Positions 24,156-58,954 of a DNA stretch of 64,000 nt are shown one piece after another. Numbering within the stretch: position 1 is the first letter of the stretch; each line of letters opens with the position of its first letter. The stretch comes from an uncultured Actinomycetes bacterium (lineage in GTDB: Bacteria > Actinomycetota > Actinomycetes > Nanopelagicales > Nanopelagicaceae): positions 88,183 through 152,182 of the forward strand of contig CAYORK010000001.1 of NCBI GenBank assembly GCA_964406345.1, given 5' to 3'. The notes under the pieces are model-generated. The model had not been told where the DNA came from and did no database searches. It was given only the letters and a program-made list of their open reading frames with translations. A program made the position numbers and the translations under genes.

Positions 24156-24413
24156 CAGACCTTTCCTTATCGGATCTCGTAACGTGCGAGCCGGCATCCT
24201 GCTGGCGCGACACGATTGCTGCTTTGGCCCTGCTTTAGGGAAGGGTGTGCGAAGCAAGCTGAAGTTAGGACGACTGAGGAATGGTTTGCTTGTGCTGGTC
24301 TGAATGGGGGGTTAATTGCTGGTGACTTGTTGAGCGTGGTTTTGGGTCACTTTTGGGGTCTAACCGTGCTCTCTGATCCGCTCGTTGCCTATGTCTCTGG
24401 CCGGTAGTAGGGT

Positions 24414-24429
24414 TAGAACAAATGTTCTA
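24414..24429. promoter_or_regulatory. LexA (SOS) box TAGAAC-AAAT-GTTCTA
   Basis: Perfect GAAC-N4-GTTC palindrome with symmetric flanks (AGGGTTAGAAC...GTTCTAAAACCCT), about 30 nt upstream of the first ORF of the dnaE2 operon. Confidence 0.75.
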
Positions 24430-24458
24430 AAACCCTCAACTTCAGATTGAGTCTACCT

Positions 24459-24806
24459 ATGCCAGAGATACCTCGTTCCGAAATCGCGCTCTTCGATGGC
24501 GAGCCGATCGAGTTCACCTATCGCAATCGTCGCTATCGGGTCTACGCCGTCCTTTCGCGATGGCGCGAAGCCGGTGGTTGGTGGAACCGAGCTAGTGATG
24601 GGAACTATCGCCCTGATGATGGTGCGCGTGCTCTCTGGCGAGTGGAGGCTGCACCAGTTGGTGCGATGACCACATTCGAGATCGAGCGGATCGATAACGC
24701 CGATCTCACCGATGAGCAGTTAGCCGAGGGTTTCGTATGGCGAATCCGACCTACATCGCGTTCGAAATCAGACCCGAGATCCGAATACCAGAGCGATGTC
24801 TCATGA
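24459..24806 (+). CDS. Small W-rich protein, DUF6504-like (recalled), first gene of the SOS cassette
   Basis: 115 aa from ATG 24459, or 119 aa from TTG 24447. Motif YRVYAVLSRWREAGGWWNR. The stop overlaps the dnaE2 ATG by 11 nt. Confidence 0.65.
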   Translation: MPEIPRSEIALFDGEPIEFTYRNRRYRVYAVLSRWREAGGWWNRASDGNYRPDDGARALWRVEAAPVGAMTTFEIERIDNADLTDEQLAEGFVWRIRPTSRSKSDPRSEYQSDVS

Positions 24807-27800
24807 ACCATTCATCCACCTTCGCGCTGTCAGTGGATATTCATTCAAGTTCGGTACCGCATCACCAGATGATCTGATCGCCACGGCAGCGCGATATGGG
24901 ATGCCAGCGCTCGCTCTCGCTGATCGAGACACTCTCGCTGGGACGATCCGATTCGCCAAAGCTGCTTCAAGATCTGGCATAACACCGATCATCGGTATCT
25001 CACTGAGGTTCTTGAACGATAGGAATCGCGTCACTCTCCTTGCTCGCTCCGGCGGTGGTTATCCTGCTTTGGTCCAACTTCTTACCTATATCAACACTCA
25101 CAGTAGCGCTATCGGCGATACCCAGAGTCATACCCAAAAGCGAAAGCCCCTCCTGACGCAGGAGATATTGATCGAGAAGAGCGAACTCACCAAGGAGTTG
25201 ATACTCCTTCACGGGCCCGACTCCTTCCTCCAAGAGAGCATCTGGAATCGAAGGCGGGAACTCGCTCTCAACCATCATCGATCGCTCGAATCGCTCTTCG
25301 CGGAACAGGTGGTCGAATGCGTCTCGCATCTTGCCTCCCTTGGCCCGCGGTCGACCGCCTTCGCTGCTCGCTCCCTCTCTTTTGCACGGGAGGAGGGGCT
25401 TACCGCGGTCGTAAGCAATGAGATCAGGATGCTCGCTCGCGAGGATGCACCGATCGCTGATGTCCTCGATGCCGCACGCCATCTCTCGCCTTTACATGAG
25501 AAGAACGTCAAGCGGATGAATGCAGAGGCGTTCTTCAAGTCCACCGGTGAGATGGATGAGGTGATCCGAGATATCGCTCGCATGGCAGGTGAGCGCAGTG
25601 GTGGGAGATTGCTTCGTGATACCAGGGCCTTGGCAGAACGCGCGATGCTCTCACCAGAGCGTGACATCGGCCTTGGCGAGATCCATCTGCCAGAGCCGGA
25701 GATGGTCGGTGCGCGGGATGAGCGAGAGATGATCCAGATCTTCCAAGATCGAAATCTCGCAGGGCTCAATCGCCGTTATGGGGACCTTCCATCGTCGAGA
25801 TACGAGAGTGCGTTGCAACGGATGCGCGAGGAACTCGATGTCATCCGGATCCTTGGCTTCGAGTCCTACTTCCTCACCGTCGCCGATATCACCGAGGCGA
25901 GTCGGAAGTTAGGGATCCGCGTCGCAGCGCGGGGCAGTGGCGCCGGCTCCTTGGTCTGTCATCTCCTGGGGATCAGCGCGATCGATCCGCTGGAACATGG
26001 TCTGATCATGGAGCGATTCTGTTCGCCACTGCGACGAGAGTTGCCGGATATCGACATCGATGTGGAGTCGGCGCGAAGACTCGAGATCTATGACTTGGTC
26101 CATGAGAGATATGGCAATCAGGTCGCGACCGTCGCGATGGTGGAGCGTTACCGAGCGAGACAAGCGATCCGAGATGTGGGGATGGCACTCGCAATATCGC
26201 CCACCGAGATCGAGATTTTGGCGAAATCGATGCCACATATCCGCGCCGGCAGGATCTCGGAAGTCATGGCAAGACTTCCGGAGTTACGTTCACTGGAGCA
26301 CTCACGTTCCAACTCATCGCTCCTTGCCATGGCGATCGGTCTGGCAGAGAGATTGGACTCATTGCCACGCAATCTTGCGATGCATCCTTGCGCTATCGCG
26401 CTATCCGATAAGGCCTTTCGGACCAGGGCACCGTTAGAGATCAATGCCAGCGGTTATCCGATGATTCAATTCGATAAGGATGATGTCGAGGAGATCGGCT
26501 TGTTGAAACTCGACATCCTGGGCGTGAGAATGCAATCGGCACTCGCTTACACGATCAACGAGATCAAAAGAGTGGATGAGAGTGAGATCGACCTGGATCG
26601 GATTCCACTCGATGATAAGAAGACCTTCGAATTGATCCAATCGACGAAGACCCTCGGTCTCTTCCAGATCGAGAGTCCAGGACAACGGGAGTTGGTAGGC
26701 AAATTCACGCCATCATCGTTTAACGATCTGATCATCGATATCTCACTCTTTCGCCCTGGGCCGGTCAAGAGCGACATGATCTCTCCCTTCCTCAATGCCC
26801 GACATGGTCACGCTCCTTCGAAGATGATCCATCCTGATCTCGAACCGATCCTCTCCGAGACCGAAGGAGTGGTGGTCTTCCACGAGCAGGTGATTCGAAT
26901 CATCGCGACGATGACGGGTGCATCGCTAGCAGAAGGTGATGAGAGGCGAAGAGAACTGGGCAGCCCTGAAGGCCAACAACGAGTCTGTGACTGGTTCTAT
27001 CCCACCGCACTCGCTCGCGGATATCCGCGGAATGTGGTCGATGAGATCTGGGAGGTGTTGCGCGCTTTCGCTTCCTTCGGTTTCTGTAAGGCACATGCCG
27101 CTGCTTTCGCACTCCCTACCTATCAATCCGCTTGGCTCAAGACTCATCACCCTGCGCATTTCTTCGCAGGTCTGCTGACCCATGACCCAGGGATGTATCC
27201 GAAGAGATTGATCCTGGACGAGGTACGGCAGTGGGGGATCGCGATCAAAGGGCTCGATGTCAACAACTCTGATTCGGGGTATCGAGTGTCACGAATCGAT
27301 GAGAGTGATGAAGGAAAGTACGCAATCTCTCTGGCCCTCAGCGAAGTTCAAGGGATCAGCGAAGAGGAGATCGAAAGCATCATTACCAATCGTCCATACA
27401 GTGATTTGAACGACTTCGTCTATCGCTCTGGCGCGAGCCAGCCGATCACAGAGGCGTTGATCCTCCTCGGTGGGTTCACCAGTATCTATGGCGAACAAGT
27501 CAATCGACGCGATCTCTTGCTTCATCTCGGTGATATCCATCGTCTTGCACGCGGTAGTGAGCAGAGACCCAGCGCTGGTCAATTCACCCTCGGTTTCAAG
27601 GCAGAGTTCGTCGAGAGCGGGTTGCCACAGTTGAGTAAGAGCGAGAAGGTGAAGCTGGAACTCGATCACCTCGGGATGGATGTCTCACATCACCTCATCG
27701 AGTTCTACGCAGATTTCCTCAACCATATTGGCGCAGTGAAGTCATCCGAGTTGTTATCACTGCGCTCCAATTCTGAGGTACTGGTAGCTGGAGTGAAGGT

Positions 27801-28059
27801 GGCGTTACAGACACCACCGATCCGATCTGGAAAGCGCGTGATCTTCTTGACGCTCAGTGACGGTCATGGCTGTAGCGACATCACCTTCTTCGAGGATGTG
27901 CAGTCAGAGGCAGCGGAATTGCTCTATTCCAGCTCACTCCTCTTGGTTAGAGCAGTGACGAGAAGGACCGGTGCACGCGGGATATCGCTACGTGCCATCA
28001 AAGCATGGGATCTCGCGCTCTCGTATGAAAGGTGGCGTAGCGTTGCGGTCTGTGAGTGA
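24796..28059 (+). CDS. dnaE2: Error-prone DNA polymerase III alpha paralog DnaE2 (ImuC)
   Basis: 1087 aa, typical DnaE2 length. Palm motif LPDIDIDVES and N-terminal PHP-like region are present. SOS box lies upstream, and a separate full-length dnaE1 lies at 55418. Confidence 0.9.
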   Translation: MSHEPFIHLRAVSGYSFKFGTASPDDLIATAARYGMPALALADRDTLAGTIRFAKAASRSGITPIIGISLRFLNDRNRVTLLARSGGGYPALVQLLTYINTHSSAIGDTQSHTQKRKPLLTQEILIEKSELTKELILLHGPDSFLQESIWNRRRELALNHHRSLESLFAEQVVECVSHLASLGPRSTAFAARSLSFAREEGLTAVVSNEIRMLAREDAPIADVLDAARHLSPLHEKNVKRMNAEAFFKSTGEMDEVIRDIARMAGERSGGRLLRDTRALAERAMLSPERDIGLGEIHLPEPEMVGARDEREMIQIFQDRNLAGLNRRYGDLPSSRYESALQRMREELDVIRILGFESYFLTVADITEASRKLGIRVAARGSGAGSLVCHLLGISAIDPLEHGLIMERFCSPLRRELPDIDIDVESARRLEIYDLVHERYGNQVATVAMVERYRARQAIRDVGMALAISPTEIEILAKSMPHIRAGRISEVMARLPELRSLEHSRSNSSLLAMAIGLAERLDSLPRNLAMHPCAIALSDKAFRTRAPLEINASGYPMIQFDKDDVEEIGLLKLDILGVRMQSALAYTINEIKRVDESEIDLDRIPLDDKKTFELIQSTKTLGLFQIESPGQRELVGKFTPSSFNDLIIDISLFRPGPVKSDMISPFLNARHGHAPSKMIHPDLEPILSETEGVVVFHEQVIRIIATMTGASLAEGDERRRELGSPEGQQRVCDWFYPTALARGYPRNVVDEIWEVLRAFASFGFCKAHAAAFALPTYQSAWLKTHHPAHFFAGLLTHDPGMYPKRLILDEVRQWGIAIKGLDVNNSDSGYRVSRIDESDEGKYAISLALSEVQGISEEEIESIITNRPYSDLNDFVYRSGASQPITEALILLGGFTSIYGEQVNRRDLLLHLGDIHRLARGSEQRPSAGQFTLGFKAEFVESGLPQLSKSEKVKLELDHLGMDVSHHLIEFYADFLNHIGAVKSSELLSLRSNSEVLVAGVKVALQTPPIRSGKRVIFLTLSDGHGCSDITFFEDVQSEAAELLYSSSLLLVRAVTRRTGARGISLRAIKAWDLALSYERWRSVAVCE

Positions 28060-29251
28060 GAGGCCCGTGATCCTCCATGTCGACATGGATGCCTTCTTCG
28101 CATCCGTCGCAGAACTCGACCATCCGCAGTACAGAGGAAAGCCCCTTGTCGTCGGTGCAGGTGCGCGCGGGGTAGTGCTCTCTGCCAACTACCCGGCACG
28201 AAAGTTCGGGATCCGTGCCGCAATGCCAGTAGCAAAGGCGCAACGGATGGCGCCCAGTGCGATCTTCTTGCCACCCGACCATGCTCGCTACAGCGAAGTC
28301 TCTGACTCCATCATGGAGATCTTCCATCGCTTCACGCCCAAGGTCGAGCCTCTCTCACTCGATGAAGCCTTTCTTGATGTCACTGGGTCACAACGTCTCT
28401 TCGGTACCGGCCAAGAGATCGCAGCTCGCATCCGCCAGGAGGTCGAGAGTGAGCAGGGCATCACTTGTTCGGTAGGTATCGCGACGACGAAGTTCATCGC
28501 CAAGCTCGCATCGGGAAAGTGCAAACCTAATGGGATGCTCGAAGTCGACGGAGAGAAGGTCTTGGAATTCCTCCATCCGCTTCCGGTTGGAGATATCTGG
28601 GGCGTTGGACCGAAGACGAACGAGGTACTGCTGAACTTAGGCCTTCGCACCGTGGCTGATATCGCGACGACGCCGCTGGGCACGCTCCAGCGTGCTCTTG
28701 GTGAGGCCTCGGGCAGTGCCATCTACGAATTGGCCTGGGGTAGGGATCACCGTGAGGTGATCAGTGATGAGTCCGAGAAGAGCATCTCTGCGGCAGAGAC
28801 TTTCGCTTATGACTTGGAAGAGAGCGAAGAGATACTCACTGAGTTGATGCGATTGACTGAACGGGCTACCTATCGTTTACGTCGTGCCGGATTGAGGGCA
28901 GGGACGATCTCGATCAAAGTGCGGTTCGCAGATTTCAAGACCATCACTCGCTCGAAGAGCATCGCGAATCCCGTCGATGGAATCGTCGAGACATTCGCTG
29001 TCGCGAAACAACTCTTCCTAGCGCTCCGGCTCTCCGGTGTCCGGATCAGGTTGATCGGGATCTCACTTGAAGGATTGATCTCGGCGGAGTCCGCTCCAGA
29101 GCAGTTGGAGTTGGGGGCGAGAACGAGAGGGTGGCGTGAGGCAGTCTCCGCAGTCGACCAGGCCCTTGCTCGTTTCGGTAAAGGCTCCGTTCGACCGGCG
29201 CGATTGGTGGAACCCGAGGAAGACTCAGGGGATTCTGAACCTAGGGCGTAG
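28052..29251 (+). CDS. dinB: DNA polymerase IV (Y-family), catalytic residues intact
   Basis: HVDMDAFFASV and SLDEAFLDVTG motifs. Start is uncertain (ATG 28025, GTG 28052 or GTG 28067), all coupled to the dnaE2 stop at 28059. C-terminal QLELG is a clamp-binding-like motif. Confidence 0.9.
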   Translation: MSERPVILHVDMDAFFASVAELDHPQYRGKPLVVGAGARGVVLSANYPARKFGIRAAMPVAKAQRMAPSAIFLPPDHARYSEVSDSIMEIFHRFTPKVEPLSLDEAFLDVTGSQRLFGTGQEIAARIRQEVESEQGITCSVGIATTKFIAKLASGKCKPNGMLEVDGEKVLEFLHPLPVGDIWGVGPKTNEVLLNLGLRTVADIATTPLGTLQRALGEASGSAIYELAWGRDHREVISDESEKSISAAETFAYDLEESEEILTELMRLTERATYRLRRAGLRAGTISIKVRFADFKTITRSKSIANPVDGIVETFAVAKQLFLALRLSGVRIRLIGISLEGLISAESAPEQLELGARTRGWREAVSAVDQALARFGKGSVRPARLVEPEEDSGDSEPRA

Positions 29252-29295
29252 AAATCGACATGACTGCCCCGCTTGAGAGGGACTACTCTGTCGCT

Positions 29296-29658
29296 ATGCC
29301 TCTTTCCGATGAAGAGAAACGCCTTCTGGCCGAGATGGAGGCTGCGCTCGCAGTCGATGACCCGAAGTTGGTCTCAACCCTCTCGGGTAAGGCTCGCACG
29401 CCGAAGAAGAATCGGATGTTCGCTGGCATCGCACTCTTCTTCACCGGTATCGCCACTCTCCTCGGGGGCTTGATCTCTCAGACCGTCCCGGTTGGAATCG
29501 TTGGCTTCGTATTTGCGCTGGTAGGACTCGTACTCATCATCTCGAATTTGGCCGGCAAGGGTGAGGTTGGCGTGAAGCAAGTCCGACCCAAGCAGAAGCC
29601 GAAGTGGAGCGCTACCTTGGAAGAACGCTGGGAGCGTCGTCAGCAGGAGAACGAGTAA
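29296..29658 (+). CDS. DUF3040-family membrane protein
   Basis: MPLSDEEKRLLAEMEAALAVDDPKL followed by two TM helices. The start was set at ATG 29296. Confidence 0.75.
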   Translation: MPLSDEEKRLLAEMEAALAVDDPKLVSTLSGKARTPKKNRMFAGIALFFTGIATLLGGLISQTVPVGIVGFVFALVGLVLIISNLAGKGEVGVKQVRPKQKPKWSATLEERWERRQQENE

Positions 29659-30489
29659 TCACTTCATAAAGAGCGCGGTCAGGCGCTTCGTAGTCAGAGT
29701 CGTTCCGATCAAAATCATCACCATGAAGTAGAGCACGTGAGTCAACAGTCCCAGCGATACGTTGCCCAGCATCAATCCACGAACCAATTCGATCGCATGC
29801 CAGAGCGGTAGCGCTTGGATCACGCTCTGGATCCATTCCGGAAAGACGGTGATCGGGTAGAAGGAACCAGAGAAGAGGAACATCGGCAGAAGCACGACAT
29901 TGATCAGGTCCATCTGTTGGTAGGTCTTCATATAGGAGGTAATTGCCATTCCAATAGCCGAGAAGGCGAAAGCGATGATCACCGCCGCCGGGATCGCGGC
30001 GATCGCCCACCAGCTTGTGACCAATCCGAGCGGTGTCACGATGGCCATGAATCCGATGGAATAGATCAGACCTCGAACGAGAGCCCAGATGATCTCGCCA
30101 AGTGCGACATCGAGCGTGCCGAGCGAGGTGGCCAGCATTGATTGATAGAGACGGCCGTGTTTGATCTTGAAGAAGACATTCCAGGTCGAGTCATAGATGG
30201 CGCCATTCATTGCGCTCGTCGCCAAGAGGCCGGGTGCGATGTACATCGCGTAGGTGATCTCAGGCCCTTGTCCCGGTGCGACCGTGCCGATCAACTCTCC
30301 GATTCCATATCCGAATGCGAAGAGAAAGAGGACAGGCTCGACGAAGCCGGTGAGAACGACGATCCAATTCGAAGACTTGAAGGCGATGATGCTTCGCTCG
30401 ATCACAGCGCCGGTGCGTCCCGCGAAGTACTGCTCACCACGCTTACCTACGCGACGCTGAGCGATGGCGACTGCGGAATCGATGATCAC
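29659..30489 (-). CDS. ABC-2-type transporter permease
   Basis: 276 aa, 6 TM helices. Its stop directly abuts the DUF3040 stop (0-nt spacer). Confidence 0.8.
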   Translation of the reverse strand: MIIDSAVAIAQRRVGKRGEQYFAGRTGAVIERSIIAFKSSNWIVVLTGFVEPVLFLFAFGYGIGELIGTVAPGQGPEITYAMYIAPGLLATSAMNGAIYDSTWNVFFKIKHGRLYQSMLATSLGTLDVALGEIIWALVRGLIYSIGFMAIVTPLGLVTSWWAIAAIPAAVIIAFAFSAIGMAITSYMKTYQQMDLINVVLLPMFLFSGSFYPITVFPEWIQSVIQALPLWHAIELVRGLMLGNVSLGLLTHVLYFMVMILIGTTLTTKRLTALFMK

Positions 30490-31358
30490 TTCGCCAACCT
30501 CCGCTCAAAGTTCTTGAAAGCCCATAGAAGTCCTACGACGAGAAGTGCCAGCATCACCGCGATGTGAACGAAGACGAGATGTGTTGGCAGGGCGTAGTCA
30601 TAGGTGAGGAAGCGACCGAGTTCGGTTGCGTGCCAGAGTGGCGAAATCCAGCCGATGGGTTGCAAGAAGATGGGCATCGTCGATAGCGGATAGAAGGTTC
30701 CTGAGAAGAGGAACATCGGCATGATGATGAGACGGTTGATTACGGTAAGGAAGAGATCCTCATTGTCCACATAGGAGACGAAGCCGAGCATCAGCGCTCC
30801 GAATCCTGCTCCGGCAAGGATCGCAACTGGAATGGCCATCCAGGATGTCGGAGAGTCGAGTGCTCCGAAGAGATAGAGCAAGAGCCAGTAGCAAGTCACG
30901 GCGAAGACCGTTCGAACCATGGCGGCGAGGAACACTCCCGTGGCGATCTGACGAGGTGAGAGTGGAGTCGAGTTCATGGCGAAGTAAGTCTTTTGCCATT
31001 TGAAGCCATCGAGAGATGGGAAGACCACCTCATCCATTGCACCAGTGATTGCAGTCGTGGCGAGAAGTGCTGGCGCGATGAAGGTTAGGTAGGGGACTCC
31101 GCCGACGCCTTCGCTTCCAAGGTTCTGATCGACTAGTGCTCCGATGCCGATTCCGACTGAGACGAGATAGAGCATGGGGTTGGCGAGTGCTTCGAAGGCG
31201 ATGACCCAGAAGAACTTCCACATGTTGCGGATGCGAGCTTCAGTGACAGAGAGCGCGCCTTGGCGAGAGATTCTCTTGATGTTGACCAATCGGAGGGACC
31301 CGACTCGCTCGCTCTCGACTTTCGTCGCACCGGTGTGCATCTTTGCCATCTTGGACAT
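30486..31358 (-). CDS. ABC-2-type transporter permease
   Basis: About 290 aa, 6 TM helices. The ATG shares one base with the ATPase stop (TGATG). Confidence 0.8.
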   Translation of the reverse strand: MSKMAKMHTGATKVESERVGSLRLVNIKRISRQGALSVTEARIRNMWKFFWVIAFEALANPMLYLVSVGIGIGALVDQNLGSEGVGGVPYLTFIAPALLATTAITGAMDEVVFPSLDGFKWQKTYFAMNSTPLSPRQIATGVFLAAMVRTVFAVTCYWLLLYLFGALDSPTSWMAIPVAILAGAGFGALMLGFVSYVDNEDLFLTVINRLIIMPMFLFSGTFYPLSTMPIFLQPIGWISPLWHATELGRFLTYDYALPTHLVFVHIAVMLALLVVGLLWAFKNFERRLAK

Positions 31359-32320
31359 CAATCCACGAGAGAGCGACCGGTCAGTCGCAAGAAGACATCT
31401 TCGAGGGAGGATCGACGGACGAGCGAAGTCAAAGGGTGTAGACCCTTCTTGTAGACCTGCTCAAGGATCTCCTCTCCATCCTCGCCGTACATCAAAATGC
31501 GGTCCGGGAGTACTTCTATTCGTTCACAAAGCGCGGTCAACTGGTCCGAAAGTGTTTGGTTCCTTTCGGAGCCGAATCGAACCTCCAACACCTCTTTGGT
31601 GGAGTAGATCCGGATGAGTTCCTGTGGCGAAGCCTCCGCCATGATCTTTCCCTTATCCATGACGATGAGGCGATCACAGAGTTGCTCAGCTTCGTCCATG
31701 TAATGGGTCGTGATGAGGAGTGTGACGCCCAATTCTTTGAGTCGGAAGAGACGATCCCAGAGGATATGACGCGCCTGTGGGTCGAGCCCAGTCGTCGGCT
31801 CATCGAGCATGAGGATCTCGGGTTCGCTGACGAGAGAACGTGCGATGGTCAATCGCCGTTTCATTCCACCACTGAGCGCCTCCACTTTGGTGTTGCGCTT
31901 CTCCTCCAACTGCGCGAACTCCAAGAGTTCCTCGATCTTCTTGCGGATGAATGGGCGTGAGAGGCCGAAGTAACGTCCATAGATGTAGAGGTTCTCCTCG
32001 ACCGTGATCTGGGTGTCGAGGTTGTCCGTCTGTGGGACCACGCCGAGGTGAGCGCGGATTTCTGGACCGTGGAGATCAGGGTCCTTACCGAGGATCGTGA
32101 TCTCGCCCCCGGTTCGCTGTGAGGTGGCAGCGATGATCCGCATGGTGCTCGACTTGCCCGCGCCGTTGGGGCCGAGGAATCCGAAGGACTCTCCCTTTCG
32201 CACTTCGAAGTCGATCCCAGCAACCGCCTCAAAGTCCCCGTAGCGCTTGATCAGACCCTTGGCGGTGATGAGAGGGGTGCCATTCGGGGTTTGCGAGATC
32301 TCTGAAGTTCTGGTGGACAT
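31358..32320 (-). CDS. ABC transporter ATP-binding protein (DrrA/NodI-like exporter ATPase)
   Basis: Walker A GPNGAGKSS, signature LSGGMKRR, Walker B LMLDEPTTGLD. Confidence 0.9.
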   Translation of the reverse strand: MSTRTSEISQTPNGTPLITAKGLIKRYGDFEAVAGIDFEVRKGESFGFLGPNGAGKSSTMRIIAATSQRTGGEITILGKDPDLHGPEIRAHLGVVPQTDNLDTQITVEENLYIYGRYFGLSRPFIRKKIEELLEFAQLEEKRNTKVEALSGGMKRRLTIARSLVSEPEILMLDEPTTGLDPQARHILWDRLFRLKELGVTLLITTHYMDEAEQLCDRLIVMDKGKIMAEASPQELIRIYSTKEVLEVRFGSERNQTLSDQLTALCERIEVLPDRILMYGEDGEEILEQVYKKGLHPLTSLVRRSSLEDVFLRLTGRSLVD

Positions 32321-32360: not shown

Positions 32361-32438
32361 GTGGGGAGGGGTGGGGGGTACGGGGGAAATAAGTGGCGAT
32401 AGGTGGTTGAAAAGGGAGGAAAAGGGAGTAAAGTGGGG
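32361..32438 (+). promoter_or_regulatory. Candidate MraZ operator: phased GTGG(G) direct repeats
   Basis: GTGG begins at 32361, 32371, 32393, 32403 and 32433 (spacings 10, 22, 10 and 30 nt), 60-130 nt upstream of mraZ. This resembles the 10-nt phased TGGG-type MraZ boxes known from E. coli. Confidence 0.5.
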
Positions 32439-32492
32439 AATAGAGCGAGACGGGGGTCTTGCTCAAGAAGTAAAGAAACAAGGGGAAAACCA

Positions 32493-32924
32493 GTGTTTTT
32501 AGGGACTCACGAACCTCGACTCGATGAGAAGGGTCGATTGATTCTCCCCGCAAAGTTCCGTGAACCCCTTGCCCCAGGACTCGTCATAACCAAGGGCCAA
32601 GAGCGTTGCCTCTATGTCTTTCCGGCCGATGAGTTCGCCCGAATCACCGAGCAGCTTCGCCAAACCCCACTCACCGCCAAGAGCGCTCGCGACTACATGC
32701 GAGTGATGTTCGCCGGCGCCCACGACGAGATTCCAGACAAACAGGGTCGCGTGACCATCCCAAACGGGTTGCGTGATTACGCCTCACTGACGAAGGAGTG
32801 CGTGGTCATCGGTGCCAATACCCGCGTCGAGATCTGGGATGCGAAGTCGTGGCAGAGCTATCTCGCTGACCGCGAAGGAGATTTTGCAAACGTCTCGGAG
32901 GAGATCTTTCCAGGTCTCTTCTGA
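32493..32924 (+). CDS. mraZ: Division/cell wall cluster transcriptional regulator MraZ
   Basis: 143 aa from GTG 32493 (SD AAGGGGAAAA). Two SpoVT/AbrB-like halves carry DEKGRLILP and DKQGRVTIP. Confidence 0.9.
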
Positions 32925-54384: not shown

Positions 54385-55321
54385 TCGAAGCAGTGAGGTC
54401 TCACACGAGCTCTCTTTCACTGCGGAGTCCGAGGGCATGCGATACGACCAAGTCATCGCTCGCGAGCTAGGCCTCTCTCGAAGCGCTCTTGAGCCACTCT
54501 TCGAAGCCGGTGCAATAACGCACCGCAACTCTGGGCGAACGATCAAGAAGTCTGACCGGGTCAGCGCGGGCGACACCATCGTTGTGCACTTCCCTCCGAC
54601 GCAGGTCAGTGAAGAAGAGCACGTCCTGATTCCACTTCTTTTCCAGGATTCCGACATTGTCGTGATCGATAAGCCAGTAGGTGTAGCAGCGCATCCAAGT
54701 CCAGGTTGGAGTGGACCCACGGTCACAGGCTCCCTTCGCGCCATGGGTATCCAGCTCGCCTCTCTCGGCCCCGATGAACGCGAGGGGATCGTCCACCGCC
54801 TTGATGTGGGAACTAGCGGCGTCATGGTCGTAGCGAAGTCGTCGGAGGCTCATCGATCGCTCAAGGCTCAATTCAAGGAGCGAGAGGTAAAGAAGATCTA
54901 TCACGCGTTGGCACAAGGGCATCTCGATCCTGCGGTTGGCACCATCGATGCGCCTATCGATCGGCACCCGAAGGAAGATCATCGATTCGCAGTGGTCGCC
55001 TCAGGGAAGGCGAGCATCACCCACTACGAAGCCATGGAGTATTTCCCGGCGGTGACACTTGCGCGAATCGAGCTCGAGACAGGTAGGACGCATCAGATCC
55101 GTGTCCACTTCTCCGCGGTCAAGCACCCACTTGTTGGCGACCTCACCTATGGCGCAGATCCGAGACTCTCCGAGAGACTCTCGATGCGCCGACCTTGGCT
55201 CCACGCGATGGAACTCGAGTTGACCCACCCTCGAACGGGGGAGCGCCTCCACTTCACAGCGCCCTACCCGAAGGACCTCGAGGAAAGCCTCGCGTCCTTG
55301 CGAAGCAGTATCGGTGGGTGA
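54377..55321 (+). CDS. rluD: RluA-family 23S rRNA pseudouridine synthase
   Basis: 314 aa from ATG 54377. S4-like N-terminus, catalytic HRLDVGTSGVMV, THQIRVH motif. Confidence 0.85.
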   Translation: MSDRSSEVSHELSFTAESEGMRYDQVIARELGLSRSALEPLFEAGAITHRNSGRTIKKSDRVSAGDTIVVHFPPTQVSEEEHVLIPLLFQDSDIVVIDKPVGVAAHPSPGWSGPTVTGSLRAMGIQLASLGPDEREGIVHRLDVGTSGVMVVAKSSEAHRSLKAQFKEREVKKIYHALAQGHLDPAVGTIDAPIDRHPKEDHRFAVVASGKASITHYEAMEYFPAVTLARIELETGRTHQIRVHFSAVKHPLVGDLTYGADPRLSERLSMRRPWLHAMELELTHPRTGERLHFTAPYPKDLEESLASLRSSIGG

Positions 55322-55417
55322 AGATACGCTCACGATGGAACCTCGCTTAGGTCACATCTGCGGGTCTCTCCAATCTTGAGTTGATCTGACCTGTTGTGAA
55401 CTGAAGTGGGATGAAAG

Positions 55418-58400
55418 TTGAGTCAAGAAAGGTCCAAAGACGTGCGACGCGATGAGAACTTCGTGCACCTTCATGTGCATACGGAGTACTCCATGCTCGA
55501 TGGAGCAGCACGGCTGCAAGACCTAGCAAGTGAAACCTCTCGCCAAGGAATGCCCGCGCTCGCGATGACGGATCATGGAAATCTCTTCGGAGCGTATGAC
55601 TTCTACAAGACGATGAACGCCAAAGGCGTCAAGCCGATCATCGGTCTGGAGGCGTATGTAGCCCCAGGCTCACGCTTCGAGAAGAAGCGGGTCAAGTGGG
55701 CCGAAGGCGGCGAGGATGATGTCTCAGCTGGTGGCGCCTACACACACATGACGCTCTTGGCATATGACAACGTCGGTCTTGCAAATCTATTTCGTTTGGC
55801 ATCGCTCTCGTCCCTTGAAGGTTTCTATTACAAGCCGCGCATCGACCGAGATCTCCTTTCGCGATACGCAGAAGGTCTGATTGGCACCACAGGCTGCGCA
55901 GGAGGTGAGATCCAGACCAGGATTCGGATGGGGGCCTATAACGAAGCCCGTTCAGCGGCTGCAGAATTCGCTGAGATCTTTGGCGCAGGGAACTTCTACG
56001 TCGAGTTGATGGACCACGACATCGACATTGAGAGGCGCTCGCGCGATGACCTATTACGCCTCGCAAAGGAGTTAGGACTGCCGCTACTGGCAACGAATGA
56101 CCTTCATTACACCTATAACGAGGACTTCTCCGCCCATGCTGCGTTGCTCTGCGTGCAGTCCGGTTCAGTGCTCTCCGATCCGAAGAGGTTCAAGTTCGAC
56201 AACGACCAGTTCTATCTCAAGAGTGCAGCAGAGATGCGCCACCTCTTCAAGGACCTGCCTGAGGCGTGCGACAACACACTCTTGATCGCTGAACGTTGCG
56301 ACGTGAAGTTACGTGAAGGTGAGAACCTGCTACCACGTTTCCCGGTCCCTTCGGGCGAGAGTGAAGATTCATGGTTGCGTTCGCTTGCCAATCAAGGACT
56401 ACGTGAAAGAGTCACTGGTGCGATCCCACGCGAGTACCAAGAGCGACTCGATTACGAACTCGATGTGATGTGCAAGATGGGTTTCCCTGGCTACTTCCTC
56501 GTGGTGGCTGACTTGGTCAGATATGCAAAGCAGAACGGAATCTGGGTAGGGCCGGGACGAGGTTCCGCTGCCGGATCCTTGGTTTCCTATGCGTTGGGCA
56601 TCACTGCTCTCGACCCGATCAAGTACGGCTTACTCTTCGAACGATTCCTCAATCCGGAACGCATATCGATGCCTGATATCGACTTGGACTTCGATGAGCG
56701 TCGTCGCGCAGAGATGATCCGTTATGCGACCGATAAGTATGGTGAGGATCGAGTCGCTCAGATCATCACCTACGGCACCATCAAATCCAAACAAGCGATC
56801 AAGGATGCGACCAGAGTCCTCGGTCTGCCTTTTGCTATCGGTGATCGATTGACCAAGGCGCTTCCACCTTCTGTCATGGGTAAGGACATATCACTCAGCG
56901 GAGTCTTCGATACCGAGGATGACCGTTTCTCCGAAGCGGGTGAGTTCCGAAAGCTCTATGAGAGCGATCCAGAGGCGAAACAAGTGGTTGATACCGCGCG
57001 AGGTCTTGAAGGTCTCAAGCGCCAATGGGGTGTCCATGCCGCTGGCGTCATCCTTAGTCGTGACCCATTGATCGATGTCATTCCGATCCACCGCCGTGAG
57101 GCGGACGGCGCGATCATCACGCAATTCGATATGGGCGCTTGTGAAGCGACTGGCCTACTGAAGATGGATTTCCTCGGGCTTCGAAATCTCTCGGTGATCG
57201 ATGATTGCCTTATCAACATCAAACGGAACAGAGGAGAAGAGGTGACGCTCTCTACCTCGAATCTCGATGATGCCAAGACCTTCGAACTCTTGGCACGCGG
57301 CGAAACCCTGGGTGTGTTCCAGCTCGATGGTGCTCCCATGCGGGCACTCCTTCGTTCGATGGCACCAGACTCCTTCGAAGACATTTCGGCTGTGATCGCG
57401 CTCTATCGACCAGGACCGATGGGGGTCAACGCGCACAACGATTACGCTGACCGAAAGAATCGCCGCAAGAAGGTCGAGCCGATCCATCCGGAGTTGGCGG
57501 AGCCCTTGGCGGAGATCCTCGGCGATACCTACGGTTTGATCGTCTATCAGGAACAAGTCATGGCGATCGCACAGAAGGTCGCAGGCTTCTCGTTGGGACG
57601 CGCGGATCTCCTCCGCAAGGCGATGGGCAAGAAGAACAAGGACATCCTCGACAAGGAGTACGTCCACTTTGAGAGTGGAATGCGTGCCAATGGATTCACC
57701 AATGATGCGATCGAGGAGCTTTGGAAGACGCTCATCCCGTTCTCGGATTATGCCTTCAACCGAGCTCATAGCGCGGGATACGGAGTCGTCTCGTACTGGA
57801 CCGCATACCTGAAGGCGAACTATCCGACTGAATATATGGCCGCGCTCCTGACCAGCGTCCGTGACGACAAGGACAAGAGCGCTCTCTATCTCAATGAATG
57901 TCGCAGGATGGGTATCAAGGTACTCCCACCCGATGTCAATTCATCAGATGCTGATTACTCGCCAGGTGGTAGCGATATCCGCTTTGGCCTAGCGGCGATT
58001 CGAAACATCGGCGAGAACGTCGTTGCCTCCATCAAGAGGGCACGTGAAGAGAAGGGTCCGTTCCAGTCCTTTGCAGACTTCTTGGCCAAGGTGGATATCC
58101 AGGTCTGTAACAAGAAGACGATCGAGTCTTTGATCAAGGGCGGAGCGTTCGACTCTCTCGGTGCTACTCGAAAGGGATTGATGGCAATCCACCTCGAAGC
58201 GCTCGACGCGATCGTGGAATCGAAGCGAGCCGAGTCGCTTGGTCAGTATGACCTCTTTGGCGATGCAGGAAGCAGTCTTCAATCGGTCGGTGGCGGCGAG
58301 ATGTCCATTCCGACAGAGGAGTGGGAGAAGTCGATCCTGCTTTCCTACGAGCGTGAGATGTTGGGGCTCTATGTATCCGATCACCCGCTTCTTGGAGTGG

Positions 58401-58954
58401 AGTCTCGTCTTCGAGGACTGACTGACATGCCGATCAGTCAGTTGAGTGATGAAAGCGTCGCGCATGAACAGATCGTGACCATCGCAGGTTTGATCACTTC
58501 GGTCTCACGTAAGGTCTCGCGCCAGGGCAATGCCTGGGCGATCGTCGGTATAGAGGACCTCGAAGGCGCTGTCGATGCCCTCTTCTTCGCCAACACCTAT
58601 ACCCAATATGCCGAGAGCTTGGCTGAGGATCGGATCGTCGTGGTGCGCGGTCGTGTCGATAAGAGGGAAGAGAACATCCGGTTCATGGCGCTTGAGGTGA
58701 ACTTCCCAGATATCAATCAACGCCCAAGCGGTCCGGTCTTGATTCGAGTCGAGGCCAATCGCTGCACTCCACCGCTCGTGGATCGGATGAAAGAGATCCT
58801 CAGGGCTCATCCTGGATCGCGCGAGGTCCATCTTCAATTGATTGGCAGGTCCGTCACGACTTTGAAGATCGACGATGCGCTCAAGGTCAGCGCAACTCCG
58901 AGCCTTGGTGCCGATCTCAAAGCCTTATTGGGACCCGACTGCATTCGCTTCTAA
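55418..58954 (+). CDS. dnaE: Replicative DNA polymerase III alpha subunit
   Basis: 1178 aa. Intact PHP motif FVHLHVHTEYSMLDG and AMTDHGNLFG; palm motif MPDIDLDFDE. Confidence 0.95.
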   Translation: MSQERSKDVRRDENFVHLHVHTEYSMLDGAARLQDLASETSRQGMPALAMTDHGNLFGAYDFYKTMNAKGVKPIIGLEAYVAPGSRFEKKRVKWAEGGEDDVSAGGAYTHMTLLAYDNVGLANLFRLASLSSLEGFYYKPRIDRDLLSRYAEGLIGTTGCAGGEIQTRIRMGAYNEARSAAAEFAEIFGAGNFYVELMDHDIDIERRSRDDLLRLAKELGLPLLATNDLHYTYNEDFSAHAALLCVQSGSVLSDPKRFKFDNDQFYLKSAAEMRHLFKDLPEACDNTLLIAERCDVKLREGENLLPRFPVPSGESEDSWLRSLANQGLRERVTGAIPREYQERLDYELDVMCKMGFPGYFLVVADLVRYAKQNGIWVGPGRGSAAGSLVSYALGITALDPIKYGLLFERFLNPERISMPDIDLDFDERRRAEMIRYATDKYGEDRVAQIITYGTIKSKQAIKDATRVLGLPFAIGDRLTKALPPSVMGKDISLSGVFDTEDDRFSEAGEFRKLYESDPEAKQVVDTARGLEGLKRQWGVHAAGVILSRDPLIDVIPIHRREADGAIITQFDMGACEATGLLKMDFLGLRNLSVIDDCLINIKRNRGEEVTLSTSNLDDAKTFELLARGETLGVFQLDGAPMRALLRSMAPDSFEDISAVIALYRPGPMGVNAHNDYADRKNRRKKVEPIHPELAEPLAEILGDTYGLIVYQEQVMAIAQKVAGFSLGRADLLRKAMGKKNKDILDKEYVHFESGMRANGFTNDAIEELWKTLIPFSDYAFNRAHSAGYGVVSYWTAYLKANYPTEYMAALLTSVRDDKDKSALYLNECRRMGIKVLPPDVNSSDADYSPGGSDIRFGLAAIRNIGENVVASIKRAREEKGPFQSFADFLAKVDIQVCNKKTIESLIKGGAFDSLGATRKGLMAIHLEALDAIVESKRAESLGQYDLFGDAGSSLQSVGGGEMSIPTEEWEKSILLSYEREMLGLYVSDHPLLGVESRLRGLTDMPISQLSDESVAHEQIVTIAGLITSVSRKVSRQGNAWAIVGIEDLEGAVDALFFANTYTQYAESLAEDRIVVVRGRVDKREENIRFMALEVNFPDINQRPSGPVLIRVEANRCTPPLVDRMKEILRAHPGSREVHLQLIGRSVTTLKIDDALKVSATPSLGADLKALLGPDCIRF

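Follow-up and report, generated by a model that had tools for sequence, protein, structure and literature searches.

A stretch of DNA of 64,000 nucleotides (nt), here called the window, comes from an uncultured bacterium of the Nanopelagicaceae (GenBank assembly GCA_964406345.1, contig CAYORK010000001.1, positions 88,183 to 152,182 of the forward strand) and contains three tightly overlapping genes, imuBC, dnaE2 and polY, behind a LexA-type SOS box. The three genes probably form a DNA-damage-inducible operon of a Nanopelagicales-type (acI) actinobacterium, which encodes a mutasome that lacks ImuA and ImuB and belongs to the class DnaE2B-PolY-ImuB-C-RecA. The identities of the genes, their coupling and the conservation of the operator in front of them are the observations on which this interpretation is built. 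The locus is a member of a published, computationally predicted class and its architecture is not new. An initial annotation, made from the sequence alone, had read the locus as a streamlined alternative mutasome; this architecture had already been described by Aravind et al. in 2013 (PMC3765255), by Timinskas & Venclovas in 2019 (PMC6511836) and by Timinskas, Kazlauskas, Timinskas & Venclovas in Nucleic Acids Research in 2026 (PMC12926913). No new category is therefore proposed, the replacement of ImuB and ImuA by ImuB-C, an active PolY and RecA having been published. The interest of the locus lies in the fixation of a recently predicted type of mutasome throughout an order of lake bacteria that are very abundant and have streamlined genomes.

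Organization and conservation of the operon

All positions are numbered within the 64-kb window (Table 1). The tight packing of the genes described in the initial annotation is confirmed by their coordinates. The first open reading frame (ORF), which encodes 115 amino acids (aa) from its ATG or 119 aa from an alternative TTG start at 24447, overlaps the ATG of dnaE2 by 11 nt. The overlap between dnaE2 and the Y-family gene is 35 nt if polY starts at ATG 28025 and 8 nt if it starts at GTG 28052, which is the more likely start. Upstream of the operon there is a divergent 5'-nucleotidase gene on the minus strand, the longest ORF of which starts at 24257, and 189 nt lie between this and TTG 24447. 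The cassette contains neither imuA' nor imuB, as had also been noted.

Table 1. Positions of the operon, its control elements and related genes in the window
Feature	Position	Strand	Description
Promoter region	24385..24413	+	-35-like, -26-type and -10 elements (predicted)
-35-like element	24385	+	TTG, with invariant T at 24385 (-29)
-26-type element	24392-24397	+	TGTCTC; TGTC[AG]G in relatives
-10 hexamer	24408-24413	+	TAGGGT; abuts the LexA box
LexA-type SOS box	24414..24429	.	TAGAAC-AAAT-GTTCTA; exact palindrome
Vestigial ancestral start	24422..24430	+	ATG TTC TAA (M F stop), inside the box
imuBC	24459..24806	+	stand-alone ImuB-C domain protein (DUF6504), 115 aa from ATG 24459
dnaE2 (DnaE2B group)	24796..28059	+	C-family polymerase, 1087 aa; ATG 24796, TGA 28057-28059
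polY (DinB, PolY-core type)	28025..29251	+	start at ATG 28025 or GTG 28052
DUF3040 / SCO2097-family gene	29260..29658	+	8 nt 3' of polY; conserved neighbour toward the dcw cluster
dnaE1	55418..58954	+	replicative Pol III alpha, 1178 aa, full domain set

Is this arrangement found in other genomes? In a scan with one genome per species there were 459 encoded relatives, and 80 loci from freshwater actinobacterial metagenome-assembled genomes (MAGs) were kept. The census used alignment A1 and is thus limited to the Nanopelagicales-type subfamily; the broad alignment A2 has no conserved stretch. All contigs of sufficient length show the gene order imuBC-dnaE2-polY-DUF3040(-mraZ), with two exceptions, and the co-occurrence of the three genes in relatives, which the initial annotation had made a test of its reading, thus extends across 80 species-level genomes. 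One of the loci, L013, is 99% identical to the window. The gene junctions overlap or nearly overlap in the relatives as well. According to the gene calls, L002 has a 4-nt overlap and a 4-nt gap, whereas in L005 the gap, of 18 nt, comes first and the overlap, of 4 nt, second, and the HxDMD motif of polY starts 11-46 nt past the dnaE2 stop in those loci where it could be located.

The first of the two exceptions is L072 (VGAE01000003.1, 11446-12000), in which imuBC and dnaE2 are followed by no polY, DUF3040 or mraZ. In the second, L082 (CAYLYA010000022.1, 8264-8581), only the last ~70 codons of dnaE2 are left between imuBC and polY. Additionally, dnaE2 is frameshifted or internally deleted in L001, L052 and L071. 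Any of these five variants could be the result of real decay or of errors in MAG assembly. Several of the records (L025, L028, L036, L037, L042 and others) are titled 'uncultured Bifidobacterium sp.' or 'Clavibacter sp.', and are probably mislabelled freshwater actinobacterial MAGs. The GC content of the window is 55.6%; that of cultured relatives is 40-48%, in genomes of 1.2-1.4 Mb.

The downstream context polY-DUF3040-mraZ is itself conserved, which would fit an explanation in which polY is a housekeeping dinB with an inserted imuBC-dnaE2 pair on one side and the dcw cluster on the other, and is expressed mainly from signals of its own, the triad being an accident of synteny. PolY-RecA pairs are also ubiquitous without DnaE2 (PMC12926913). 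Several observations make this explanation very improbable, however. In the loci examined there is no space for a promoter between dnaE2 and polY, the stop of the one being overlapped or abutted by the start of the other. The adjacency of imuBC, dnaE2 and polY recurs in the distant actinobacterial orders Propionibacteriales, Micrococcales and Kineosporiales, judging from consecutive protein accessions in a table of PMC12926913, and by the same source complete Nanopelagicaceae genomes have no Y-family gene other than polY.

The small protein

The product of imuBC, which the initial annotation had likened to DUF6504 proteins, does match Pfam DUF6504 (PF20114), with an E-value of 5.3e-9 and 36.7 bits against a gathering cut-off of 24.2. 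The same Pfam model also matches, at residues 430-505, an ImuB of 507 aa from a Rhizobium imuA-imuB-dnaE2 cassette, and DUF6504 is therefore the C-terminal domain of ImuB, for which Aravind et al. introduced the name ImuB-C (PMC3765255). In addition, the relative on an Arthrobacter plasmid carries the NCBI name 'DUF6504 family protein'.

A resemblance to the C-termini of ImuB proteins had been proposed as a point to be checked. The Rhizobium match favours it, as does an hhalign comparison of the window-family profile with the stand-alone ImuB-C of Tessaracoccus lapidicaptus (probability 92.6%, E 4e-7), whereas a comparison of 37 DUF6504 sequences with four proteobacterial ImuB C-termini gave an alignment that was colinear and weak (E 0.024, probability 2%). 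HMMER alone gives no bridge to ImuB, because the best 150 matches of a profile of 20 DUF6504 proteins, searched against 1.84 billion representatives, were all small proteins of 53-191 aa, with zero full-length ImuB among them. The bridge is thus provided by the Pfam match to the Rhizobium ImuB C-terminus, together with the literature.

Residues W41, W42 and W94 are invariant. The invariant tryptophans of the family comprise WW, that of WRVEA and a C-terminal one, and alignment A1 also has an invariant R27. Homologues in the protein collection number 284, and all those listed are small and stand-alone; the named ones are from Candidatus Nanopelagicaceae or from freshwater metagenomes. An AlphaFold 2 model of the protein is all-beta, with a confidence (pLDDT) of 72. 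The protein fits the description of the ImuB-C superfamily (PMC3765255), a beta-rich domain of ~80-100 aa in which a C-terminal tryptophan and basic residues are conserved. No relative in the PDB was found by sequence search or by fold (Foldseek), which agrees with the description of the ImuB-C fold as 'novel' in PMC12926913. The window protein (24745-24803) and some other members of the family, namely homologues P0012, P0014, P0020, P0089, P0119 and P0126-P0137, have a conserved C-terminal tail W.IRP.SR with a variable hydrophilic extension, and the remaining clades stop right past the last tryptophan (W.I..V).

What might such a domain do? Aravind et al. proposed that ImuB-C is a DNA-lesion sensor or DNA-binding module which guides repair enzymes, and in that case the small protein would not be an adaptor. 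The domain is found beside many unrelated systems of repair, among them Ku/ligase, SplB photolyase and SRAP, a peptidase associated with the SOS response (PMC3765255), and its conserved basic residues and tryptophans, with no catalytic pattern, would suit such a role. Nevertheless, the C-terminal region of ImuB from Mycobacterium tuberculosis binds DnaE2 and ImuA' (cited in PMC6511836), and AlphaFold models put ImuB-C on the PHP domain of DnaE2 (PMC12926913). A DNA-binding fold was also not matched in the PDB searches by sequence and fold. We consider the sensor role improbable for the window protein.

The large polymerase

The 1087-aa protein has the Pfam domains PHP, DNA_pol3_alpha, finger, HHH_6 and OB. 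Because a full dnaE1 sits in the same window, the gene at 24796 is a second, specialised paralogue. The two proteins are 29% identical, and the Pfam PHP score is 177 bits in DnaE1 and 61 bits in DnaE2. In DnaE1 the PHP ligands are canonical, the clamp motif is QYDLFG and the C-terminus is extended. In DnaE2 the metal ligands of the PHP domain are lost (HLRAVSGYSFKFG, compared with HLHVHTEYSMLDG in DnaE1), and the last ~95 residues of DnaE1 and the tau-binding C-terminus are missing; the polymerase aspartates are retained (PDIDID and KLDILG). A function as a second replicative DnaE was considered and rejected, given the full DnaE1 in the window, the loss of the PHP ligands and of the C-terminal domain, and the grouping with DnaE2B.

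Compared over its full length, the protein shares 43% identity with the DnaE2 of Arthrobacter and Streptomyces and ~28% with proteobacterial DnaE2 annotated as 'error-prone DNA polymerase'. The N-terminal 400 aa match best to T. lapidicaptus DnaE2B (233 bits, 39.6%). Other DnaE2B score 165-203 bits, the window DnaE1 111 bits and DnaE2A 69-91 bits. By these pairwise scores the large polymerase is assigned to DnaE2 group B, not group A.

The sequence QFTLGF, from residue 928 of the window DnaE2 onward (~27577-27597), aligns with the clamp motif QYDLFG of DnaE1, and QL[TS][LF]GF is conserved at the clamp-motif position in the DnaE2 orthologues (L013-L092). DnaE2 may thus be able to bind the beta clamp by itself.

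The Y-family polymerase

PolY has the Pfam domains IMS, IMS_HHH and IMS_C, and no fused DUF6504. Its score against the NCBIfam DinB (Pol IV) equivalog NF002677 is 349.5 (cut-off 256) and the catalytic motifs HVDMDAFFAS and SLDEAFLDVTG are kept. To judge by its sequence, PolY is a DinB of the active type with a clamp-like motif, in agreement with what had been annotated. The C-terminal tail, EQLELG-ARTR-GWREAVSAVDQALARFGKGSVRPARL, consists of the clamp-like QLELG and a segment resembling the N-terminus of RecA (RecA-NT), and is conserved in the orthologues, including QLELG. The T. lapidicaptus PolY is 47% identical over the full length with the tail (E 2e-121), and the tail aligns with those of PolYs that have a published RecA-NT motif (PMC12926913). 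Comparison of a profile of the PolY tail with one of the RecA N-terminus gave an E-value of 1.2e-4 over 11 columns, with a probability of 55%.

Absence of imuA' and imuB from the window, and relation to known systems

No second Y-family gene, imuA' or imuB is present in the 64-kb window. For complete genomes of the family, Supplementary data file 5 of PMC12926913 gives four polymerases each, DnaE1, DnaE2B, PolA1 and one PolY-core, in five Nanopelagicaceae: Ca. Planktophila dulcis, sulfonica and versatilis, and Ca. Nanopelagicus limnes and hibericus. Since the sole Y-family member is a PolY-core, these genomes have no ImuB. The Nanopelagicaceae are in the dataset of that study and are not discussed in its available parts. 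In our literature search no paper was found that names 'DUF6504', and none that ties the Nanopelagicales to LexA or DnaE2 specifically.

Stand-alone ImuB-C beside DnaE2 and/or DinB was described by Aravind et al. (PMC3765255). Variants without ImuA, which have an active or inactive PolY, a stand-alone ImuB-C and/or DnaE2, were described by Timinskas & Venclovas, in whose proposal RecA takes ImuA's place by binding to the RecA-NT motif (PMC6511836). The 2026 study divides DnaE2 into groups A, B and X and puts forward eleven putative complexes. Two of these, 'DnaE2B-PolY-ImuB-C-RecA', as in T. lapidicaptus, and 'DnaE2B-ImuB-C', as in Arthrobacter alpinus, are restricted to Actinobacteria with imuA/imuB-less genomes and are supported by AlphaFold models, including models of five actinobacterial examples with the same three genes as the window; further examples of the class are Janibacter indicus and Kineococcus radiotolerans (PMC12926913). 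The initial annotation had supposed that a stand-alone adaptor and an active DinB take over the roles of ImuA' and ImuB. ImuB-C and the active DinB are indeed there, but in the published model it is RecA that replaces ImuA'.

The window locus shares with the DnaE2B-PolY-ImuB-C-RecA systems the same three genes, the restriction to Actinobacteria and a PolY in which the clamp motif is followed by GW..A..A.D.A..RFG..V.PA. When it is set against the T. lapidicaptus system, PolY is 47% and the N-terminus of DnaE2 40% identical, and ImuB-C reaches the hhalign probability of 92.6% given above. Its proteins are shorter, with a DnaE2 of 1087 aa compared with 1250-1320 aa in published members of the class. 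Unlike the published examples, it is from a streamlined freshwater lineage in which the locus is fixed beside the dcw cluster. The arrangement of promoter, LexA box and start codon described below is not discussed in the available parts of PMC12926913.

The canonical ImuA'-ImuB-DnaE2 mutasome, as in M. tuberculosis (Rv3395c-Rv3394c and Rv3370c), would have in common with the window system an SOS-controlled, error-prone C-family polymerase that needs an ImuB-C domain, a protein of the Y-family fold with a clamp motif, and a RecA-NT-type motif. The window locus is not such a cassette: only 189 nt are available upstream, the Y-family protein is catalytic and has no fused DUF6504, and DnaE2 is not of the A type, being group B and ~25-28% identical to DnaE2A. 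There is no ImuA', in place of which RecA is the presumed partner, and a separate ImuB-C and a catalytically intact DinB stand for ImuB.

Two other systems are partly similar. In the DnaE2B-ImuB-C pairs of A. alpinus and of plasmid pYA7-1a of Arthrobacter sp. YA7-1, the DUF6504 gene is likewise directly upstream of the DnaE2B gene, and the DnaE2 of pYA7-1a is 43% identical to that of the window. Unlike in the window, these pairs have no adjacent PolY. The plasmid pair (L008, NZ_CP110115.1, 4701-8990) is found beside an SRAP gene, and as the plasmid is conjugative the two-gene DUF6504-dnaE2 module is mobile. The operon lexA-imuB-C-polY of Geobacter sulfurreducens resembles the window operon in the combination of a stand-alone ImuB-C with an active PolY under damage control, and is the sole member of the wider group for which experiments have shown co-transcription and induction by damage (PMC6511836). 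It differs in having no DnaE2, in the presence of lexA inside the operon and in belonging to a deltaproteobacterium.

LexA box, predicted promoter and start codon

The LexA box consensus of actinobacteria is TCGAAC-N4-GTTCGA. The box in the window, TAGAACAAATGTTCTA, is the perfect palindrome that had been annotated, and this exact 16-mer occurs once in the window, compared with 0 expected in shuffled sequences. Matches to the LexA consensus with two mismatches are at chance level in the window, and so the case for an operator rests on conservation across genomes. One T[CA]GAAC-N4-GTTC[GT]A box is located just upstream of imuBC in all 86 of the orthologous loci that have enough upstream sequence, and in 62 of the 86 it is TCGAACAAATGTTCGA, the LexA consensus. 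Two symmetric changes, C2>A and G15>T, set the window box apart from the consensus, and its three closest relatives (L013-L015) have them as well. From this conservation we infer that the box is probably a LexA operator.

The sequence in front of the box is conserved in the same way. The upstream sequences of the orthologous loci include 76 unique ones. All 76 have TANNNT immediately before the box and GTC 21-19 nt upstream of it, and in 72 of them GTC is extended to GTC[AG]G. The spacing is fixed, with the GTC element 10 nt upstream of TANNNT. In mycobacteria the consensus of promoters activated by PafBC (RecA-NDp) is tGTCgg(N10)tA(N3)T (PMC8635444, PMC5656591). The spacing in tGTC[ag]g-N10-TAnnnT equals that of the PafBC consensus; the window copy, TGTCTC, retains GTC at this spacing and lacks the two G's. 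This motif match suggests dual control by LexA and PafBC. The mycobacterial promoters with both LexA and PafBC/RecA-NDp sites (e.g. recA, uvrA) similarly combine tGTC[ag]g-N10-TAnnnT with TCGAAC-N4-GTTCGA. They differ from the predicted promoter of the window type, in which the operator abuts the -10 element and contains the start codon.

The window promoter was not called by a simple scan for the sigma-70 consensus, and a generic promoter and terminator scan found nothing informative near the operon. The RecA-NDp pattern occurs in the window at or below chance frequency, and the imuBC promoter itself needs two mismatches. Elsewhere in the window, a one-mismatch match to the pattern (TATCGGTG-N8-TACGCT, 55309-55330) is found ~90 nt upstream of dnaE1; its frequency is at chance level and no claim is made for it. 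PafBC was not found among the ten ORFs of 230-360 aa that were scanned in the window.

In the relatives the box and the gene are joined more closely still. Of 79 loci, 71 have an ATG at box positions 9-11 (TCGAACAA-ATG-TTC-GA.) that shares the reading frame of imuBC and gives the conserved N-terminus MFE[KN]. In the window clade the change of the box G to T makes the third codon a TAA, and imuBC starts ~37 nt downstream in another frame. It is this stop, which moved the imuBC start downstream, that made the box appear '30 nt upstream' of the gene. Because the -10 element ends 8 nt upstream of the box ATG, the imuBC mRNA of the relatives is probably leaderless, with the LexA operator lying over the first codon.

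Proposed mechanism and its alternatives

How might the operon work? In undamaged cells, LexA would bind to the palindrome, which is observed to be conserved, abutting the -10 element and covering the start of transcription. In most relatives it would also cover the ATG of the probably leaderless mRNA. Following damage, RecA bound to single-stranded DNA would bring about the self-cleavage of LexA, and a PafBC-type activator may add positive control at the conserved -26 GTC element, to go by its motif. The three tightly overlapping genes would then be produced together. All of the contacts between the proteins are taken from published models of orthologues (PMC12926913). According to these, the degenerate PHP domain of DnaE2 would be the binding site of the small beta-barrel ImuB-C, and PolY would attach to the beta clamp by means of QLELG and to RecA by means of the C-terminal RecA-NT-like motif. 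PolY and ImuB-C would together be a split ImuB, and RecA would take the place of ImuA'. The expected outcome is an error-prone lesion-bypass machine with two active polymerases, which would be the only translesion equipment of these streamlined genomes.

Do the products act as one complex? Or does a single SOS operon encode two independent translesion devices, a DnaE2B-ImuB-C heterodimer and a PolY-RecA heterodimer, which never form a complex of four subunits? The latter is the main rival to the mutasome interpretation, and although we consider it unlikely it has several points in its favour. Both of the pairs are recognised as stand-alone types in PMC12926913. ImuB-C and DnaE2 are found without PolY on pYA7-1a and in L072, and imuBC and polY are found without dnaE2 in L082. 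The clamp-like motif QL[TS][LF]GF of the DnaE2 orthologues might mean that PolY is not needed in order to reach the clamp. On the other hand, the three genes are all tightly coupled for translation, an arrangement conserved in the 80 species-level loci examined, and published AlphaFold models of tetramers from orthologous systems have interface scores (ipTM) of ~0.82-0.87 (PMC12926913). Also, imuBC has been kept with polY in L082 despite the loss of dnaE2, which hints at a link between ImuB-C and PolY.

A number of points weigh against the interpretation as a single inducible mutasome. The proposal of one complex, and of induced mutagenesis, draws on published AlphaFold models of other species. 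The modules are separable in nature, as seen on the Arthrobacter plasmid and in A. alpinus, L072 and L082. With polY beside the dcw cluster, part of the adjacency could be inherited synteny. The RecA-NT match of the PolY tail, although non-random, is short (11 columns, at the 55% probability given above), and the comparison of DUF6504 with the four ImuB1 C-termini (E 0.024) is weak and is not used as evidence. The LexA box of the window is off consensus at two positions and its -26 element is without the two G's. Lastly, recA is not in the window, and lexA and pafBC of this organism were not seen.

Implications

A wider proposal is made more tentatively than the mutasome interpretation itself. 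It is that the acI bacteria (Nanopelagicales), the most abundant bacterioplankton of fresh water, may have their entire translesion capacity, two of their four polymerases, in one operon that has a leaderless mRNA, a start codon embedded in the operator and a hybrid promoter of the PafBC type under dual control. If this is true, the operon would be a minimal natural model for the origin of ImuB by fusion. It would also contradict the earlier view of dnaE2, in which the gene is soil-specific, goes with high GC and a large genome, and in fresh water is under-represented (PMC4069389). The fixation of dnaE2 in the small-genome, freshwater Nanopelagicales does not fit that generalisation.

The lineage is suited to a search for ultraviolet- or day-induced expression in lake metatranscriptomes. 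The compact proteins, with a DnaE2 of 1087 aa and an ImuB-C of ~95-115 aa, are attractive for reconstitution of the complex. The anatomy of the predicted promoter, in which the -10 element abuts the operator, the start codon is inside it and there is a PafBC-like -26 element, leads to testable predictions of regulation.

Neighbouring genes

The gene that follows polY encodes a protein with a match to Pfam DUF3040 and a score against NCBIfam SCO2097_fam that is under the cut-off. No terminator-like site was found between polY and this gene in the promoter and terminator scan. The DUF3040 gene may be co-transcribed with polY, and is not counted as part of the system.

In most of the relatives mraZ is within ~150 nt of DUF3040. 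In the window, three genes of the ABC-transporter type on the minus strand (two permeases and one ATPase, 29659-32320) are present between the DUF3040 gene and mraZ (32403-32924). A match to mraZ is absent downstream in L013, L014 and L016-L018 and is found ~2.8 kb downstream in L015, and the insertion of the ABC genes seems to be specific to the window clade.

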